Position numbers and translations under genes: made by a program | NCBI GenBank assembly: GCA_050950825.1 | Contig: JBMNIH010000007.1 | Span: 1-64,000, forward strand | DNA length: 64,000 bases | Reading direction: 5' to 3' | Source of the DNA: Clostridia bacterium | Lineage (GTDB): Bacteria > Bacillota > Clostridia > JAAYHZ01 | Notes under the pieces: model-generated | The model's database searches: none | Told to the model about the DNA's origin: nothing | The model's input: the letters and a program-made list of their open reading frames with translations, nothing else | Shown: positions 10,720-24,251 of the stretch, in pieces | How positions within the stretch are numbered: position 1 is the first letter of the stretch | Layout of the letters: every line of letters begins with the position of its first letter

Positions 10720-12579
10720 TTAGTATAACGGTGCCATGATCTTGAATACTTCTCCGCGTTCAAAGAATTCATACTCTTCTACGCTGTATACTTCGTCGAT
10801 CAGTTTTTGCAAGCCGGCATCGTACAATTGATCGATGTATTGGGACCATTCGCTGTTGAAGTCTGCAATTTGGCCGTTCAATGCACGATTCTTAAAGTCG
10901 TTGATAATCGGATTCATTTGAGGATCCAATTCCGCTTTCAGTTCGGTATACTTCTTGTACAGTTCATCTCCCATGTAAATTTGAGAAATATATTTCACCG
11001 GATCCAACGCATATTTTTCGTACAAGTTGTTCGCGTACATGTAAGCAGGAACGGACCAGTAACCGTCATTAACGGCGGCATCGATTTCACGCTGAGCGGT
11101 AGGCCATTGCATCAACCAGCAGGTAAACGGTCTGACGTTTCCTCTGTATTGAGGTTCCAAATCCGCTTGCGGGGTAATGATCATGGTGCTCTTGTAGGGT
11201 TCGCCTGCCCACTTCCAATGGATTCCTTCAATACCGTAGTGGTATCTGTAGAAAATATCTTCTTCGGTATAGATCATGTATTGAAGCATTCTTAAAATTC
11301 TTTCAAGCTTCGCATCGCTAACTTGTGCACCGATCATTTCGGTTCTGGATAATCCGACGCCGAATGTATCGATACTGTAGGTCATGTCTACCAATTTTCC
11401 TTCGGGTCCTCTGAACATGGGTCCCATGACAAAACGAGCGTTTTCGTCCACGCCTAACAGGATGTTTTGAGGCGGATAGTTTCTGTAAATGTCGTTAGTC
11501 AGCTGCAAGTAACCGTCTCTGTGGCCTTGGAAAATACCCATCTTGTTAGTAGAGCTAAGCTGCTGGTATTCGGCAACCCATCCGGCTTGTCCGGGCAGTC
11601 TTCTGATGTAGCCCTTGTTCAAGTTGTCGGAAATCCAAGCCAAATAGTCTCTGTAAGGTGTGTAAGCAACCTTCGGAACGATGTCTCCGGTAATGGGATC
11701 TTCGTAGAGGTAGTTCAAGTCATAAACGAATCCGAAGAGACCTTCTTGGGTCATGTTTGTCCATGCGGATTCCGGTAGGTACATCATACCGTAGGTATCG
11801 TCTTCACCGTTTCCGTCCGGGTCGTCTTCCGTGAATTTTCTCAGAATGTCGTTGAACTCTTCGAATGTGAAATTGCCTTCGCCGACGAACAAGTTGTCGT
11901 TAAACTGATCGAAACCTTCGGTAATCATTTTTACAGGCTTTAATTGGCTCATATCCATTTCATATCCGATGGCTTCCAACCAGTCGAGATTGATAATGGT
12001 TGCGTCGTAGAAATATTGTGCCGAGGCAAATCCGATGTGGGTAATTCCCAAATACTCATCGGTTGTTCCTTCCACTAAATTATACTTGAAGCCAATGGGC
12101 ATCTTTTGTAACAATTCGTAATAACCGGGCAGATATTTTTGGAAAAAGCTCAAGGGAATCGAACGAGTCAATCCTTCTTTTAACATGTCCGCAGGTTGTC
12201 TCGGACCTCCGGGCATGAACATGAAGTCAGGAACGTCTCCCGAGGCAACAAGCGCAGCCATTCCTTCCTTATCGTTTAAGGAATCTCTAGCCCATACTTG
12301 TAAATCCACGTTGAACATTTCTTCCAGTTCCAACTCGTCCCATCTTCCGTCTTGCCAGTCGGTGTTCAGCTGGGTGATCCAAGAAATTTCCATGAATTCT
12401 TCAAAGGGATTTTCTTCAACAACCGTGGTGGTTGTTTCCAATGTAGTGCCTTTTGTAGTAGTTCCGGTCGAGCTTGTTGTTTTGCTGCCGGTTTCATTCG
12501 GATTTTGTTCCGTTTTTGTGCATGCGGCAAAAGACAGAATCAAAACCGTGGCCAATAGAAAGCATATAAGCTTCTTCAT
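10720..12579 (-). CDS. Extracellular solute-binding lipoprotein (carbohydrate ABC type)
   Basis: FAAC lipobox, Thr-rich linker, ASGDVPD, NLDWLE, DPDGNGEDDTYG and YGIEGIHW motifs. Confidence 0.85.
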   Translation of the reverse strand: MKKLICFLLATVLILSFAACTKTEQNPNETGSKTTSSTGTTTKGTTLETTTTVVEENPFEEFMEISWITQLNTDWQDGRWDELELEEMFNVDLQVWARDSLNDKEGMAALVASGDVPDFMFMPGGPRQPADMLKEGLTRSIPLSFFQKYLPGYYELLQKMPIGFKYNLVEGTTDEYLGITHIGFASAQYFYDATIINLDWLEAIGYEMDMSQLKPVKMITEGFDQFNDNLFVGEGNFTFEEFNDILRKFTEDDPDGNGEDDTYGMMYLPESAWTNMTQEGLFGFVYDLNYLYEDPITGDIVPKVAYTPYRDYLAWISDNLNKGYIRRLPGQAGWVAEYQQLSSTNKMGIFQGHRDGYLQLTNDIYRNYPPQNILLGVDENARFVMGPMFRGPEGKLVDMTYSIDTFGVGLSRTEMIGAQVSDAKLERILRMLQYMIYTEEDIFYRYHYGIEGIHWKWAGEPYKSTMIITPQADLEPQYRGNVRPFTCWLMQWPTAQREIDAAVNDGYWSVPAYMYANNLYEKYALDPVKYISQIYMGDELYKKYTELKAELDPQMNPIINDFKNRALNGQIADFNSEWSQYIDQLYDAGLQKLIDEVYSVEEYEFFERGEVFKIMAPLY

Positions 12580-20480: not shown

Positions 20481-21912
20481 CGGTTTAACGGAGAGAGAAT
20501 TTATCTCCCGGATCGTATTTAATGAATTCCGGATTATGAAACACTTCGTCGATTAGCTTTTGCAATCCCGCTGCATACAATTGGTCGATGTATTGAGCCC
20601 ATTCGGAGTTGTAATCGGCGATTTCTCCATTGAGCGCTCGAGTTTTGAAATCTTTGACGACCGCATCGATTTGGGGTTTAACTTCCGCATTGAGCTCCGT
20701 ATATTTTGCATACAGATCGTATCCCATGTAGGCGGCGGAAGCGTATTTCTCCGGATTCATGACGTATTTTTCAAACAATCCGTAAGCGTGCATAAACGGC
20801 ATGTATGCCCAGAAGCCGTATTTTACGGCGTTGTCAATTTGATTTTGAACGGTGGAGGGATTGTAAAACAAGCTGAATACATGCAAAGAACCTCCTTGGT
20901 ATTCGGGAGGAAGCTCCGCCGTAGGCGTAGCGATCATGGCGCTGACATAAGGTTCTCCCGACCATTTGTAGTGAATGCCTTCGATTCCGTATTTGTAGCG
21001 ATACCAAATTTCTTCGCTGTGGAAGGTGGTGTATTGCAGAATGGCGAATATTCTTTCCAGCTTTGCATCGTCCACTTGGGCTCCGATCATTTGAACTCGA
21101 TACGTTCCTGTTCCGTAGGGGTCGATGTTGTAGGTCATATCCACTAAGGTTCCGTCCGGTCCTCGGAATATCGGTCCCATGACAAAGCGAGCATTTTCGT
21201 CGGTGTTAAGAAGAATGTTTTGCGGAGGATACGTTCTGTTTTCTTCGCTATTCAAGGACAAGTACCTGCTTCCGTTGGCTTGGATGATACCGACCTTGTT
21301 CGGTTGGGTTGCGGCGGAAAATTCGACGATCCAGCTTTGCTGTCCGGGGAGTTTTTTCATATAGCCTTTTTGCAAATTGTTGGAGATCCATTGCAGGTAA
21401 TCTCTGTAGGGCGTGTAAGCATAAGAGGGAACAACGTTTCCGGTAACAGGATCTTTATACAGATACTCGGCTCTGTGTACAAAGCCGAACAAACCGGTTT
21501 GGGTCATATTGGTCCACGCGTTTTCGTTAAGGTAGACCATCCCGTATGTATCGTCGATTCCGTTTCCGTCCGGGTCGTCTTCGGTGAATTTCCTTAGAAT
21601 ATCGTTGAGGTCCTCGAAGGAATAGTTGCCTTCCGCGAAGAAGATGTTGTCGTTAAATTTTTCATAGCCTTCCGTGGTCATCTTAACCGGGATGCAGCTT
21701 GCTTTCATCGAAAGGATAGCCGACGGCTTCGAGCCAATCCAAATTCACGCAGGTTGCATCGTAGAAATATTGGCAGCCGGAAATGTTGCAGTGGGTAATG
21801 CCTAAGTATTCATCGGTTTTGCCGGGGACTAAGTTGTATAAAAACCCCACCGGGATCTTTTCCAACATGGCGTAGTATCCCGGGAGCCATTCCTTGAAGT
21901 GGTTAGTGTGAA

Positions 21913-21938
21913 AATAAAAAAGACCCGCGAAGGCCGCA
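21913..21938 (-). terminator. Terminator-like hairpin in the IS110 right end
   Basis: Minus strand GCGGCC-TTCGCG-GGTC followed by TTTTTTATTTT. Confidence 0.5.
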
Positions 21939-21994
21939 ACAAAGCAAGCCCTTAAGGAATACCTAGGACTGTGGATGAAACTGGAATTACACTA

Positions 21995-23260
21995 TTAGTT
22001 TGTTATTGCCACTAGATCAGAAATATTCACAGTATACCCATTGGCTTGCAAAAATGCGATGGCCTGCTCAATACTTAGAGAATCCTGCTGATTACGCTTC
22101 TTAGATTTCGCATTGTCATCATACAGCAATGGATTGAATGGCTCATTTTTAGAGAGCATGTGATAGATGCAGGTTAAAATCATTCTTGCGGTAGCAATAA
22201 TAGCACGTTTGTGACCACGACGTTTTTTAATCGCTTCATAGCGGTTTTTGAAAACAGTGCAGGACTTGTCCTTTACAGCGGCATTAGCACACTGGACAAG
22301 TAAAGGTTTAATGTAGACACCGGCGCGGCTAATACGGACACTTTTCTTCTTACCGGCACTTTCATTACTCTGGGGTGTAAGGCCAGCCCAGGAACAAAGA
22401 TGCTTGTCCGAGGTGAAGACGGACATATCGGTTCCGATTTCTGAAAGAATAGCTGTAGCCGATGCCTGCTTAATACCAGGTAAAGTAGCGATGATGTCAA
22501 TTTGTTCTTTGAAAGGTAAAGATAGCTCGAGTATTGTAGCTTCCAGTATTTCGATGCATTTTTCAACGCTGTTATAGTGCTCATAGCATACAGACAATTT
22601 TGCCGCTTGCTCCTTAGAGAATTTACCAGCAACGGCTTGTTCAATTTCATCCGATTTTTTCTTCAGACTTTTGTGGAGCATTGAAGAATAATCAAAGTCG
22701 ATGATATCAGGATTCTCTATCATGTGCTTAATAATTGAGGAAGCAGACTTGCCGAAGGTGTCGGAAACAACATTGGCAAGCATGATGTTTGAAACTGTAA
22801 GCGAATTTTGCACCCGGTTTTTCTCACTGGAAGAGACGTTGGTAAGTTTAGACTTGTACCGAATTAAATCCCGCAACTCCCGTATAGGCTTAGATGGGAT
22901 AAAGCTACCTTTTACCAATGCATGCTTGTGTAAGTCAGCAAGCCAAATTGAATCTCGCTTATCGGTTTTCTTACCTGGGATATTTTTAACGTATCTCGGG
23001 TTTGCAAGGGTAATAGTGCAGAAATCCTCGAGCACGTTAAAAACAGGAATCCAGTACTTTCCGGTGGATTCCATACAGACATCTTTGCACTTGTTTTCTA
23101 CTAACCAGTTGTTGAGAGCGATTAGATCATTTTTGAAAGTATTAAAACGACGTGTTTGATAGGAAGTAACATTTTTATCATTGGTGGTGGCAATAGTGGC
23201 AATTACAAACTTTTTGTGGACATCAATTCCACAACAGATGGGATAGACAATCTTAAGCAT
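21995..23260 (-). CDS. IS110-family recombinase/transposase (DEDD RuvC-like + Tnp20 domain)
   Basis: CGIDVHK (D), CMESTG (E), KTDKRDS (D,D), WAGLTPQSNESAGK (catalytic Ser region); RBS before ATG 23260. Confidence 0.95.
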   Translation of the reverse strand: MLKIVYPICCGIDVHKKFVIATIATTNDKNVTSYQTRRFNTFKNDLIALNNWLVENKCKDVCMESTGKYWIPVFNVLEDFCTITLANPRYVKNIPGKKTDKRDSIWLADLHKHALVKGSFIPSKPIRELRDLIRYKSKLTNVSSSEKNRVQNSLTVSNIMLANVVSDTFGKSASSIIKHMIENPDIIDFDYSSMLHKSLKKKSDEIEQAVAGKFSKEQAAKLSVCYEHYNSVEKCIEILEATILELSLPFKEQIDIIATLPGIKQASATAILSEIGTDMSVFTSDKHLCSWAGLTPQSNESAGKKKSVRISRAGVYIKPLLVQCANAAVKDKSCTVFKNRYEAIKKRRGHKRAIIATARMILTCIYHMLSKNEPFNPLLYDDNAKSKKRNQQDSLSIEQAIAFLQANGYTVNISDLVAITN

Positions 23261-23284
23261 CAACCTCACCCTTGTAAATATTTA

Positions 23285-23471
23285 GGGATGCAGGCATTGA
23301 CTGTCCACTCAATATAAACAAGAGCTTTGTTTAAAACAAAGATTAGTGTTCGTGCTCGATGGCACACTTATTTGTACTTGAGAGAGCGAACGGCACATGT
23401 TAATATACGGACAACTCAAAGTTTGGTTGTCACACTCACCTCCCCGTGCTCTGTAGTATACCTGCATACCC
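23285..23471 (-). ncRNA. Predicted IS110 bridge (guide) RNA
   Basis: Downstream of TTTACT-17-TAAAAT; closed by a GGGUAUGCAGG/CCUGCAUCCC stem; internal hairpins; segments match the target flanks and the donor end. Confidence 0.72.
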
Positions 23472-23477
23472 ACTTAT

Positions 23478-23506
23478 ATTTTACTACAGAGGGTGGCTTA
23501 AGTAAA
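23478..23506 (-). promoter_or_regulatory. Sigma-A-like promoter inside the IS110 left end
   Basis: TTTACT (23506-23501), 17 bp, TAAAAT (23483-23478). Confidence 0.5.
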
Positions 23507-24251
23507 AATTTTTCATTCTATTTTGTGCCTTGAGCACAGCGAAAGGAATGTGATGTTAATATGGATGGAGCGGGAAATTCCTTCTTCGTATTGCTGTTCC
23601 GGCGGCCTCGGTGCACCCGGTGCAAAGTAGAAATCGGGAATATCACCGGCGGCAAACAACGGCGCCATTTCTTCACCCTTAACGCCATCTTGCGTCCACA
23701 CTTGTATATCCACATTGAACATCTCTTCGAGCTCCAGCTCATCCCATCTTCCTTCCGGATAAGTGGAATTGTGCTGTGTCAGCCAGGTAATCTCGAAAAA
23801 TTCTTCAAAGGGATTTACCTCTTCTGCTGTAGTTGTTTGGCTCTTGTCATCCGATTGTTCTTTCGAGCAAGCGGCAAACTGAAAGATGACAGTTAAGACC
23901 AACAGTAAACACAACAGTTTTTTCATACCTTTTTCCTCCGATTCACAAAATTTAATCTATAGAAATATATAGATTATCCTTTGCAACCGTTCAAACAAAT
24001 GTAATGCATTTGTTTTCTGCTCTTTTGTAAGCGTTTAGAACTGCCGCTGGCGGAGATCAATAACAAATAAGGGAACAGTCAAAATTAATTTCATGAATTT
24101 AAGATTATTACCGAATGAATTTCGACGTAGTAAAATTGTACCATAATAACGCCGAGAAATCAAATAAAGAAATATATAATAAATAACAAAAAAGAGAAAA
24201 GAGAGAGATTTTTTACATCTCCTCCGTATAACGACTTTTTTTAGCTATCTT

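Follow-up and report, generated by a model that had tools for sequence, protein, structure and literature searches.

The closest described systems are insertion sequences of the IS110 family, whose recombinases have been shown experimentally to be guided by RNA (PMC11208160, PMC11208158, PMC11187229). In IS621, as set out in the cited accounts, a non-coding RNA in the left end, 5′ of the gene, forms two loops with an inner hairpin each. The bottom-strand guides, which cover the left arm and the core, lie on the 5′ strands of these loops and the top-strand guides on their 3′ strands (PMC11208160, PMC11208158). The IS1111 seekRNAs of ISEc11, ISPa11 and ISKpn4 are described as coming from a long right end, 3′ of the gene, in elements with subterminal inverted repeats of 7-17 bp, and they carry the top-strand complement 5′ of the bottom-strand one. 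That of ISEc21, an IS110-type element, comes from a non-coding region 5′ of the transposase gene and has the top-strand match 3′ of the bottom-strand match (PMC11187229). Many IS1111 bridge RNAs are reported to keep their donor-binding bases in a multi-loop (Durrant et al., PMC11208160). A 2026 preprint lists 32,190 bridge RNAs predicted from 86 models (10.64898/2026.10.21.760802). As bridge and seek RNAs are an established class with tens of thousands of predicted members, one more is expected.

The element, its boundaries and its recombinase

We analyzed a 64,000-nucleotide stretch of a clostridial contig (the window), in which a preliminary description had placed an IS110 recombinase with an IS621-like bridge RNA. 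The element and its surroundings are laid out as follows.

21904-23556, minus strand: whole IS110-family element of 1653 bp, with one TA core copy (21905-21904) counted in
21995-23260, minus strand: recombinase gene, 421 aa from ATG, with D13, E64, D100, D103 and S301
23557-23563, minus strand: left target CATAT plus core TA (23558-23557), identical at all element copies with a known left junction
21904-21914, minus strand: right terminus TTTTCACAC, the left donor arm, with core TA
21896-21903, minus strand: right target of the window copy, ACCACTTC, from empty-site contigs and copy flanks
21922-21939, minus strand: terminator-like hairpin and T-run, 3′ of the recombinase gene
20485-23926, minus strand: interrupted host gene for a lipoprotein-type solute-binding-like protein, split by the element

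The boundaries and target proposed in the preliminary description are borne out by empty sites and by an uninterrupted orthologue. Metagenome contigs from 4 of 4 sequencing runs connect 21901 to 23555, with four letters ambiguous at the joint, and read CCATATTAAC/CACTTC across it. Since 1653 nt are skipped, the insertion is precise, with no longer duplication. The upstream (left) flank of the window copy terminates in ...CCATATTA at 23557. A same-genus orthologue of the split host gene is uninterrupted and in frame, and the solute-binding protein paralogue in the window (10787-12579) lacks the target word, as had been noted. The host gene is additionally frameshifted near 21700-21683, and Pfam gives its product just a weak DUF3502 match, under the cut-off. 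The source genome holds three copies of the element, 100% identical and at different sites, and identical elements occur at further, other sites in metagenomes. We conclude that the element is intact and recently active.

To judge from its sequence, the recombinase is an intact IS110-family protein with a DEDD RuvC-like domain at its N terminus and, at its C terminus, a Tnp domain with a catalytic serine, in agreement with the preliminary description. Pfam identifies DEDD_Tnp_IS110 (PF01548, 74.6 bits) and Transposase_20 (PF02371, 65.1 bits), and the NCBIfam model NF033542 gives 239 bits, where 140 is the cut-off. D13, E64, D100, D103 and S301 align with D11, E60, D102, D105 and S241 of IS621, D13 being assigned from the N-terminal GIDVHK motif, beyond the shown alignment. 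Both the domains and the aligned catalytic residues are therefore like those described for IS621 (PMC11208160, PMC11208158). Similarity to the IS621 protein is distant (E 7e-10 versus chain 8wt6_A), and the plasmid-hosted named matches ISBth13, ISBth166, ISShdy1, IS1618 and IS5708 share only about 22-36% identity. The nearest sequence relatives in Bacillota include elements of a Sporomusa MAG, a Peptococcaceae MAG and Bacillus sp. V3-13 at 63% aa identity; a Clostridium tagluense plasmid carries a relative at 57.7%.

A predicted bridge RNA in the left end

The minus-strand element has a left end of 296 nt up to the ATG and a right end of 91 nt past the stop. Its predicted non-coding RNA lies in the left end, 5′ of the gene, as described for IS621 and ISEc21 and unlike the right-end position reported for IS1111. 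The subterminal repeats reported for IS1111 also have no clear counterpart: the two terminal 50-nt stretches of the element share no inverted match longer than 6 nt, and the 6-nt one is A-rich. The left-end architecture is conserved in 72 loci and has the following parts.

23478-23506, minus strand: putative sigma-70-like promoter TTTACT-17-TAAAAT for the non-coding RNA, from a consensus scan (9/12)
23288-23467, minus strand: predicted bridge RNA of about 180 nt, with closing stem ATGCAGGT (23467-23460) / GCCTGCAT (23295-23288)
23433-23443, minus strand: loop 1, 5′ strand, GGAGGTG (23443-23437) followed by conserved AGTG (23436-23433)
23410-23431, minus strand: loop 1 inner hairpin GACAAC...GTTGTC, with changes on both sides in 5/6 pairs
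23399-23407, minus strand: left-target guide on the loop 1 3′ strand, UAUAU + UA (core) + AC
23365-23380, minus strand: conserved loop 2 5′ strand CAAGTACAAATAAGTG, including AAGTG (23369-23365), nearly invariant in relatives
23352-23365, minus strand: loop 2 inner hairpin GTGC CATCGA GCAC, with changes on both sides in 4/4 pairs
23342-23350, minus strand: left-donor guide on the loop 2 3′ strand, AACAC + UA + AU
23325-23341, minus strand: hairpin CTTTGTTT/AAACAAAG immediately 3′ of the donor guide, which turns loop 2 into a multi-branch loop

Covariation supports the closing stem and both inner hairpins. In the closing helix, pairing reaches 93.6% and 4/5 pairs show compensatory changes, and 37 of 43 distinct sequences fold the loop 1 inner segment into a hairpin with 4 bp or more. 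Covariation scores 0.334, compared to 0.171 in shuffled alignments (0/500 shuffles as high) and 0.08-0.15 when slid. In a sequence-only alignment the outer stems of both loops are 58-76% paired, which supports them poorly, and the hairpin at 23325-23341 is 48.9% paired, which supports it weakly. The preliminary description had placed hairpins between its pairs of guides; the covarying hairpins sit elsewhere, the first separating GGAGGTG from the left-target guide, the second the AAGTG strand from the donor guide. A search of Rfam 15 gave no match.

Two loops, each with an inner hairpin, are the arrangement reported for IS621. Unlike in the published IS621 structure, the second loop is directly followed by another hairpin, and loop 2 seems multi-branched around the donor guide in the manner of the IS1111 bridge RNAs mentioned above. 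The -10 box of the putative promoter aligns with TATAAT in relatives, and this segment may drive the non-coding RNA. On the consensus scan only, the promoter would lie inside the left end, unlike the junction-spanning promoter described for IS621.

Target and donor guides

All four strings given guide roles in the preliminary description occur where it had placed them, and for the first, the role is confirmed by comparison with homologues. ATATTAAC (23406-23399) equals the left target plus core and lies inside the 3′ strand of loop 1. Across unique homologous loci, guide positions 2-7 equal the locus's own left flank in 52 of 55, spanning 23 distinct six-mers, whereas non-cognate pairings of guide and flank match in 57 of 2778 (2.1%). 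Close relatives differ in both partners together: in L052 (92% aa) guide AAGCUA goes with flank AAGCTA, in L054 (83% aa) guide CAUAAAA goes with flank CATAAAA, and L053 shows a single mismatch between guide and flank. We conclude that the left-target guide covaries with the flank and is naturally reprogrammed among close relatives. U-G wobble extensions had been proposed for both the target and the donor match; the one in the target guide stands, with U at 23407 opposite the C of CAT.

The donor role assigned to ACACTAA (23349-23343) also holds, as the equivalent bases follow each element's own right end. This string reproduces the right end and continues into the left end by one base. The guide equals the last six right-end bases in 49 of 58 regex-anchored loci, with 8 distinct variants, and matches the right end in 59 of 72 loci when the best match inside a downstream search window is taken; both counts are inflated by shared descent because guide and end lie within the same element. 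In L074, the donor guide matches 9/9 over the abutted right-left junction. The donor guide thus covaries with the element's own right end and is naturally reprogrammed in close relatives. The short matches had been judged to be at chance level. On both strands of 64 kb, ATATTAAC would be expected 3.45 times and ACACTAA 4.49 times, but within the 285-nt strand the expectations are ~0.008 and ~0.010, so that these two matches are already unlikely by chance.

Comparing the two guides also defines the core. At guide position 7, target and donor carry the same base in 44 of 44 loci; at position 6 they do so in 33 of the 44. The core is therefore 2 nt, TA here and TT in sister clades, rather than the TAAC proposed earlier. 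A 2-nt core with an invariant second base is shared with IS621 as reported, where the core is CT. Also as in IS621, one guide of ~7-9 nt equals left target plus core and another left donor plus core, and extra guide bases fit the other partner in the fashion of handshake guides: the trailing AC of the left-target guide matches the first bases of the element. The AC that the element start and the right flank of the window copy have in common is either chance or such a handshake. Unlike in IS621, it is the 3′ strands of the loops that carry the left-arm, bottom-strand guides, and the IS621-like order of left target, right target, left donor and right donor is not upheld.

This is probably an active IS110-family insertion sequence whose left end gives rise to a bridge RNA of about 180 nt. 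The closing stem would enclose two loops, each with its inner hairpin. The loop 1 3′ strand, CCG-UAUAU-UA-AC (23407-23399), is the top strand of the left target and the 2-nt core and so would base-pair with the target's bottom strand; the loop 2 3′ strand, ACG-AACAC-UA-AU (23350-23342), matches the right end of the element over the circle junction. The DEDD/Ser recombinase would then swap strands between circle junction and target, at the TA core. We infer the production of the RNA and its binding, the order of strand exchange and the chemistry.

Gene-start insertion and the right target

The family inserts mostly between the Shine-Dalgarno (SD) sequence and the ATG of host genes, in antisense orientation. 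Among 53 unique left junctions, 42 start with CAT, and 40 of these open an antisense reading frame that either spans 50 aa or more or extends to the locus end. Copy 2 sits at the ATG of a DUF6807 gene and copy 3 at that of a nucleotidyltransferase gene; the window copy is atypical in lying within a gene. The target would take the form CAT-N2-[N-A/T]-N(0-10)-CCTCC, the antisense of the stretch from ribosome binding site (RBS) to ATG.

GGAGGTG (23443-23437) is the only RNA segment complementary to the right flank (CACCTCC). In copies 2 and 3 the right flank is complementary to it; in copy 1 it is so with one G-T wobble. An anti-SD word lies at most 16 nt away in 36 of 57 unique insertions and, for the identical element, in 4 of its 5 distinct right flanks, compared to just 26 of 550 CATATTA sites (4.7%) in the host genome. 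We regard GGAGGTG as a candidate right-target guide, with moderate confidence, and its pairing as GGAGGUG would belong to the inferred part of the mechanism. If it is a guide, the RNA places the top-strand complement 5′ of the bottom-strand one, like the IS1111 seekRNAs and opposite to the order reported for ISEc21 (PMC11187229).

A tentative extension is that this clade represents a third IS110-family layout, which combines an upstream RNA of the IS110 type with the guide order of IS1111, a 5′ guide (GGAGGUG) that mimics the Shine-Dalgarno sequence, and clade-wide targeting of start regions. With such a mimic, this Bacillota clade would use translation-initiation regions, a generic target in every host, and the few variable bases between CAT and core would choose individual genes.

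It is rather unlikely that the target and donor guides are real while the right target side is not read by RNA. The anti-SD enrichment would then arise through a pyrimidine motif read by the protein, DNA properties of gene starts or survival of insertions, and GGAGGUG would be kept for another cause, such as structure or pairing with the left-end start. Several observations fit this alternative. The distance from core to anti-SD word ranges over 0-10 nt, which would require a sliding pairing register, and we found no fixed-register covariation of any RNA column with the right target or right donor arm. Scoring contiguous pairs, with each wobble counted as half, GGAGGUG and flank reach a mean best pairing of 5.37 versus 4.78 in composition-matched shuffles, a modest excess, and scores of at least 7 in 21% versus 7%. 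One relative (L091) has an SD-like 5′ strand and a flank without the anti-SD word. Additionally, GGAGGUGAGUG complements the conserved CATTCCTTTC at the left-end start, to which the GGAGGTG strand is about equally complementary. Against it, the complementarity is strand-specific (5.37, compared to 2.85 for the wrong strand and 3.58 for the loop 2 strand), and a seven-base target guide alone would hit gene starts at only the 4.7% of host sites given above. The clade of L014 and L062 alters both strands of loop 1 along with its flanks: its 5′ strand is GGGCCUGAG, its target guide is not CAU, and CTCAGG or ACTCAG stands beside the core in its right flanks. The guide order reported for IS1111 seekRNAs (PMC11187229) also argues for an RNA-read right target. 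Because CATTCCTTTC resembles the target, loop 1 could recognize an inserted copy's left junction as well, which, if true, would bear on excision of the element.

The four-guide, IS621-like map of the preliminary description survives in its structured RNA with a target and a donor guide and fails in both of its right-arm guides; that ATATTAAC, AAGTG, ACACTAA and GTGG are all guides is very improbable. AAGTG (23369-23365) is the reverse complement of CACTT in the right flank of the window copy, but CACTT is missing from the 4 further distinct right flanks of the identical element, and the string belongs to an (A/G)AGTG motif kept at the close of the 5′ strand in both loops of the 50 aligned relatives regardless of their targets. 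There is no covarying hairpin between 23399 and 23369. GTGG (23308-23305), proposed for the right donor, shows neither conservation nor covariation; it lies outside both loops and does not follow the variable left-end starts. The loop 2 5′ strand (23365-23380) tracks neither the core base nor the right donor arm, and we found no guide for that arm in the RNA, unlike in IS621 as reported.

That there is no RNA guidance, and the internal copies of flank and end act as DNA (compare the IS200/IS605 guides) or are recombination footprints, can hardly be maintained, given guide blocks within loops flanked by covarying hairpins and 3′ of a conserved -10 box, the RNA guidance demonstrated in this protein family (PMC11208160, PMC11208158, PMC11187229) and an NCBIfam model itself named 'IS110 family RNA-guided transposase'.

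If GGAGGUG is a guide, RNA gene position and guide order, which are coupled in the literature (IS110 versus IS1111), come apart in this clade, and this matters both for the divergence of the two groups and for the order in which the DNA strands are exchanged. If the whole clade prefers the RBS-to-start-codon stretch, its way of choosing targets would stand out and would clearly affect host genes. What the element has to offer engineering is a compact 421-aa recombinase whose core is not CT. Natural reprogramming occurs over a short evolutionary distance in this family, and relatives at 100%, 92% and 83% aa identity, with different guides fitting their own sites, form a ready-made test set. The more distant Bacillota relatives, from Sporomusa, Peptococcaceae, Bacillus sp. 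V3-13 and C. tagluense, share the left-end architecture and conserved motifs but differ in guide blocks and ends, and most have a TT core.

Boundaries of the element and its recombinase

The element lies on the minus strand and comprises the following features.

Features of the element in the window
23556-21904, minus strand: whole element, 1653 bp
First 296 nt of the element, minus strand: non-coding left end
23506-23478, minus strand: promoter-like TTTACT-17-TAAAAT, found by scan
ATG 23260 to stop 21995, minus strand: recombinase open reading frame, 421 aa
91 nt after the open reading frame, minus strand: right end, containing a terminator-like hairpin

The host genome (G000; 3.55 Mb in 11 contigs) carries three copies of the element that are 100% identical to one another, and all three left flanks terminate in CCATATTAAC. 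On the right, the junction of the window copy (copy 1) reads CACACTAAC followed by CACTTC, and those of the other two copies read CACACTAAA and CACACTAAC, each followed by ACCTCC. Contigs from all four sequencing runs that we compared (three RNA libraries and one DNA run, all as contigs) connect 21901 straight to 23555, so that 1653 nt are absent and four letters fit either side. This joint is the empty site of related strains. Additionally, the orthologous gene in a genome of the same genus (G001) has no interruption, and the reading frame of the window gene continues from one half to the other across the reconstructed site. Because the empty-site joint, the uninterrupted orthologue and the continuity of frame agree, we conclude that the target and circle junction reconstructed in a preliminary description of this DNA are correct. 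The element itself is covered in contigs of the three RNA libraries, and this coverage was not counted as expression. The joints listed for the contigs of the four runs included none for the circle junction; since rare forms are lost from contigs, this carries no weight against such a circle.

The open reading frame, for which an alternative GTG start at 23269 would give 424 aa, contains the DEDD_Tnp_IS110 and Transposase_20 domains and scores 239 bits against the NCBIfam model NF033542, "IS110 family RNA-guided transposase" (cut-off 140). When it is aligned with the solved recombinase of IS621, the experimentally characterised bridge-RNA element of this group (8wt6_A, E 7e-10, chain numbering shifted by 2), E64, D100, D103 and S301 fall opposite E60, D102, D105 and S241; D13 lies within an N-terminal GIDVHK motif, beyond the printed IS621 alignment. 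These results bear out the earlier identification of an IS110-family recombinase with DEDD residues and a serine.

Relatives and the predicted bridge RNA

Scanning genome contigs identified 44 homologous loci with best-segment identities of 26-70% (about 63% for the closest full-length matches), hosted by Bacillota MAGs, Bacillus, Sporomusa and Thermoanaerobacter. A metagenome scan added 68 further loci, in which the protein is identical in four, 92% identical in two and 83% identical in one. A hidden Markov model of the left end matched 89 places, and the 72 full-length ones were aligned. They share a conserved plan: a -10 box (TATAAT in most relatives, TAAAAT in the window element), a closing stem, loop 1 and loop 2, the last two being the target and donor loops of a predicted bridge RNA of about 180 nt. 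Loop 1 consists of GAGCACG, N-GGAGGTG-AGTG, a variable hairpin, CCG, nine variable bases and ATGTG; loop 2 consists of CAAGYACAAAYRAGTG, a variable hairpin, ACG, nine variable bases and CTTTG, and is followed by a further hairpin. The stretch CATTCCTTTC is also conserved in the element. Rfam 15 contained no relevant family and returned one chance snoRNA match (E 9.6). Most IS110 and IS1111 elements have a predicted bridge RNA, and the text of a 2026 preprint (10.64898/2026.10.21.760802) reports 32,190 predicted bridge RNAs from 86 models, many unlike the IS621 structure.

RNAalifold recovered no more than 13 pairs from the MAFFT alignment. Because the hairpin columns are misaligned there, we tested a hand-drawn structure on a 50-sequence alignment. 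In this structure 67.8% of cells were paired, compared to 57.9% after shuffling, and the covariation score was 0.334, compared to 0.171 in shuffles (0 of 500 as high) and 0.08-0.15 with slid partners. The closing stem was 93.6% paired, with compensatory changes in four of its five pairs, and such changes also occurred in 5/6 pairs of the loop-1 hairpin and 4/4 of the loop-2 hairpin; on the same alignment, support was weak for the outer stems of the loops and for the last hairpin. Folded singly, the loop-1 hairpin segments formed a hairpin of at least 4 bp in 37 of 43 distinct sequences by our own reading, and in 22 of 43 by the script's stricter criterion.

A fold of the whole 285-nt left end, in which the left-end start pairs with the 5' strand of loop 1, was not used as an RNA model because it encloses the conserved -10 box. 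The complementarity behind it joins 23430-23451, in the region of the loop-1 5' strand, to the first bases of the element at 23532-23553 (22 nt, 73%, higher when G-U pairs are counted). This pairing is part of the minimum-energy fold of the entire left end, and both partners are conserved; one possible effect is that loop 1 is sequestered in read-through transcripts, another that it reads an inserted copy at its left junction. Elsewhere in the left end, the 5' strand of loop 2 (CAAGTACAAATAAG, 23366-23380) closely resembles a conserved CAAGGCACAAAATAG near the left-end start (23518-23532), and each adjoins a GTGC...GCAC hairpin.

Left-arm guides and the exchanged core

On its 3' strand, loop 1 carries nine variable bases (TATATTAAC, 23407-23399 in the window element) that are identical to the left flank, locus for locus. 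To keep this comparison from being circular, we sought guide positions 2-7 in the 26 nt that precede a conserved anchor in the left end. They matched their own left flank perfectly in 52 of 55 unique loci, which hold 23 distinct six-mers, whereas a guide compared with the flank of another locus matched in only 57 of 2778 pairings (2.1%); the three imperfect loci (L072, L053 and L077) have one mismatch each. The nearest relatives have been reprogrammed together with their sites: L052, whose protein is 92% identical, pairs the guide UAAGCUA with the flank CAAGCTA, and L054 (83%) has CAUAAAA at CATAAAA. In the window element, UAUAUUA is opposite CATATTA wherever a site is known. At position 1 the guide has U or C, facing C in the target, as expected from the U-G wobble that had been proposed along with this left-target guide, and both proposals hold.

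On the 3' strand of loop 2, positions 2-7 of the nine variable bases (AACACTAAT, 23350-23342) are identical to the last bases of the right end, in agreement with the earlier proposal of ACACTAA as left-donor guide. An exact match was found in 49 of 58 regex-anchored loci, covering eight distinct six-mers, and the nine mismatches arise from anchors at wrong sites; taking the best match in a downstream search window, the donor guide was perfect at the expected distance in 59 of 72 loci. Because a guide and its end are inherited together, these counts overstate independence. The junction tables take the best match of positions 2-7 in fixed windows (about 100 nt upstream of the RNA and 600 nt downstream), and identity values drawn from them are therefore circular; the non-circular test is that of the anchored left flank. 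In L074 (1-2735 of a termite-gut-type metagenome contig), the right end abuts the left end with a single TT core, and the guide matches 9/9 over the junction. The contig sequence recurs 1628 nt further along with 100% identity; this represents either an assembled circle or a tandem dimer.

Both junctions are available at 44 unique loci. In all 44, target and donor share the base at guide position 7, and in 33 they also share that at position 6. Every guide has A at position 8, which matches the first base of the left end in 47/53 loci but that of the right flank in only 25/57. Therefore, the exchanged core is positions 6-7, which read TA in the subclade of the window element and TT in most others. 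The TAAC core originally proposed consists of TA plus two bases common to the left-end start (AC...) and the window flank. The second core base is invariant, as is reported in the text of PMC11208160 and PMC11208158 for the CT core of IS621. Position 9 behaves in a handshake-like manner: where the left end has C or G as its second base, the guide base follows it in 14 of 15 loci (28 of 53 overall).

The guide order had been described as that of IS621, in which, according to the text of the same two papers, each loop uses its 5' strand to pair with the bottom strand (left arm and core) and its 3' strand to pair with the top. Unlike in IS621, the 3' strands of the window element are identical to the left arm and core, so the bottom-strand guides sit on the 3' strands of both loops and the IS621-like order does not apply. 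In the account of Siddiquee et al. (PMC11187229), the seekRNAs of IS1111 elements place the complement of the top strand 5' of the bottom-strand match, and ISEc21, of IS110 type, shows the reverse. The guide order of the window element is that of IS1111 seekRNAs, provided that GGAGGTG (see below) is a guide. Relative to the direction of the gene, the reversed order would predict that cleavage begins on the strand opposite to the one in IS621. By published structural criteria the element is of IS110 type, with the RNA in a long left end and termini whose longest inverted match is 6 nt.

Right-arm candidates and host targets

The segment earlier taken for the right-target guide, AAGTG (23369-23365), cannot serve as such, because it is conserved in both loops of all relatives and because the other four distinct right flanks of the identical element lack CACTT. 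The only segment complementary to the right flank is GGAGGTG (23443-23437), which pairs with CACCTCC at copy 3, with ACCTCC at copy 2 and, through one G-T wobble, with CACTTC at the window copy. An anti-Shine-Dalgarno word occurs within 16 nt of the core in 36 of 57 unique insertions across the family, compared to 26 of the 550 places where the host genome contains CATATTA (4.7%); for the identical element it accompanies four of five distinct flanks (binomial P ~2e-5 by our own arithmetic). When contiguous pairs are scored with each wobble counted half, GGAGGTG and its flanks give a mean best score of 5.37, against 4.78 for composition-matched shuffles and 2.85 for the wrong strand, so that the excess over shuffles is modest though specific to the strand. 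The clade of L014 and L062 has GGGCCUGAG in place of GGAGGTG, a non-CAU target guide and core-adjacent flanks of CTCAGG or ACTCAG; the two sites may be homologous and hence not independent cases. Arguing against a plain guide function, the distance from core to anti-Shine-Dalgarno word varies from 0 to 10 nt, and mutual-information scans found no fixed-register covariation with the right target and no partner column for either the right target or the right donor arm. Taken together, GGAGGTG is probably the right-target guide.

For the right donor, no guide was identified in the loop-2 5' strand, in GTGG or by the mutual-information scans. GTGG (23308-23305), put forward in the preliminary description, lies outside the loops and gave no signal. 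The loop-2 5' strand is nearly invariant and does not track the core base; it was rejected since it is the same in the TA and TT clades and its pairing with the left-end start is poor (mean best score 3.86). As a handshake guide, we also rejected AGUGUGA on the 5' strand of loop 1, which is complementary over 7 nt to TCACACT of the right end (I3), since it is unchanged in L052 and L053, where the right end and donor guide have changed.

Left junctions begin with CAT in 42 of 53 unique cases, and for 40 of the 42 the opposite-strand ATG opens a reading frame of at least 50 aa or one that runs to the end of the locus; this count has no random-ATG baseline, and the window copy, although inside a gene, opens 111 aa too. 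Copies 2 and 3 each coincide exactly with a start codon, the genes concerned encoding a DUF6807 protein (E 4e-68) and a nucleotidyltransferase (E 4e-15). We conclude that the clade mostly inserts between the ribosome-binding site and the ATG, in antisense orientation. In the literature we found no text in which a left-end RNA has its guides in this order, or in which an IS110 clade is aimed at ribosome-binding sites or gene starts; the layout may be drawn in figures and supplements, such as Extended Data Fig. 10c of PMC11208160 and Fig. S12 of the 2026 preprint. A C. azorensis preprint, PMC13626964 and 10.64898/2026.08.31.748434 served as background only.

The window copy is the exception, as it lies within a gene for a lipoprotein-type solute-binding-like protein. 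This gene is a member of an extensive paralogous family; 17 DNA matches occur in the host genome, including an intact paralogue at 10787-12579 on the minus strand (40-63% identical in protein). The interrupted gene carries a second lesion at 21683-21700 (minus strand), where the frame ends in ...ESKLHPG* and the coding sequence resumes in a different frame as VKMTTEGYEKF...; the paralogue reads through at this point, and the lesion is a one-base frameshift or an assembly error.

The 26 host sites that combine CATATTA with an anti-Shine-Dalgarno word, for example CATATTA followed by ACCCTCC on C3 and C4, are unoccupied and are candidate future targets. Between 23550 and 23563, contigs of three runs (X9, X15 and X16) part from the window at 23563, 23559 and 23550, respectively; these points are more insertion sites or variants, and the left flank of one diverging contig ends in ...CACTATTA, agreeing with the guide at only 5/7 positions. 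In L052, a 92%-identical relative, a 27-nt tandem duplication (AATTGCGTTATGTTATTTTTCAAGCTA twice) lies some 70 nt before the left end and ends exactly at the left target and core; an earlier event may have left it as a footprint.
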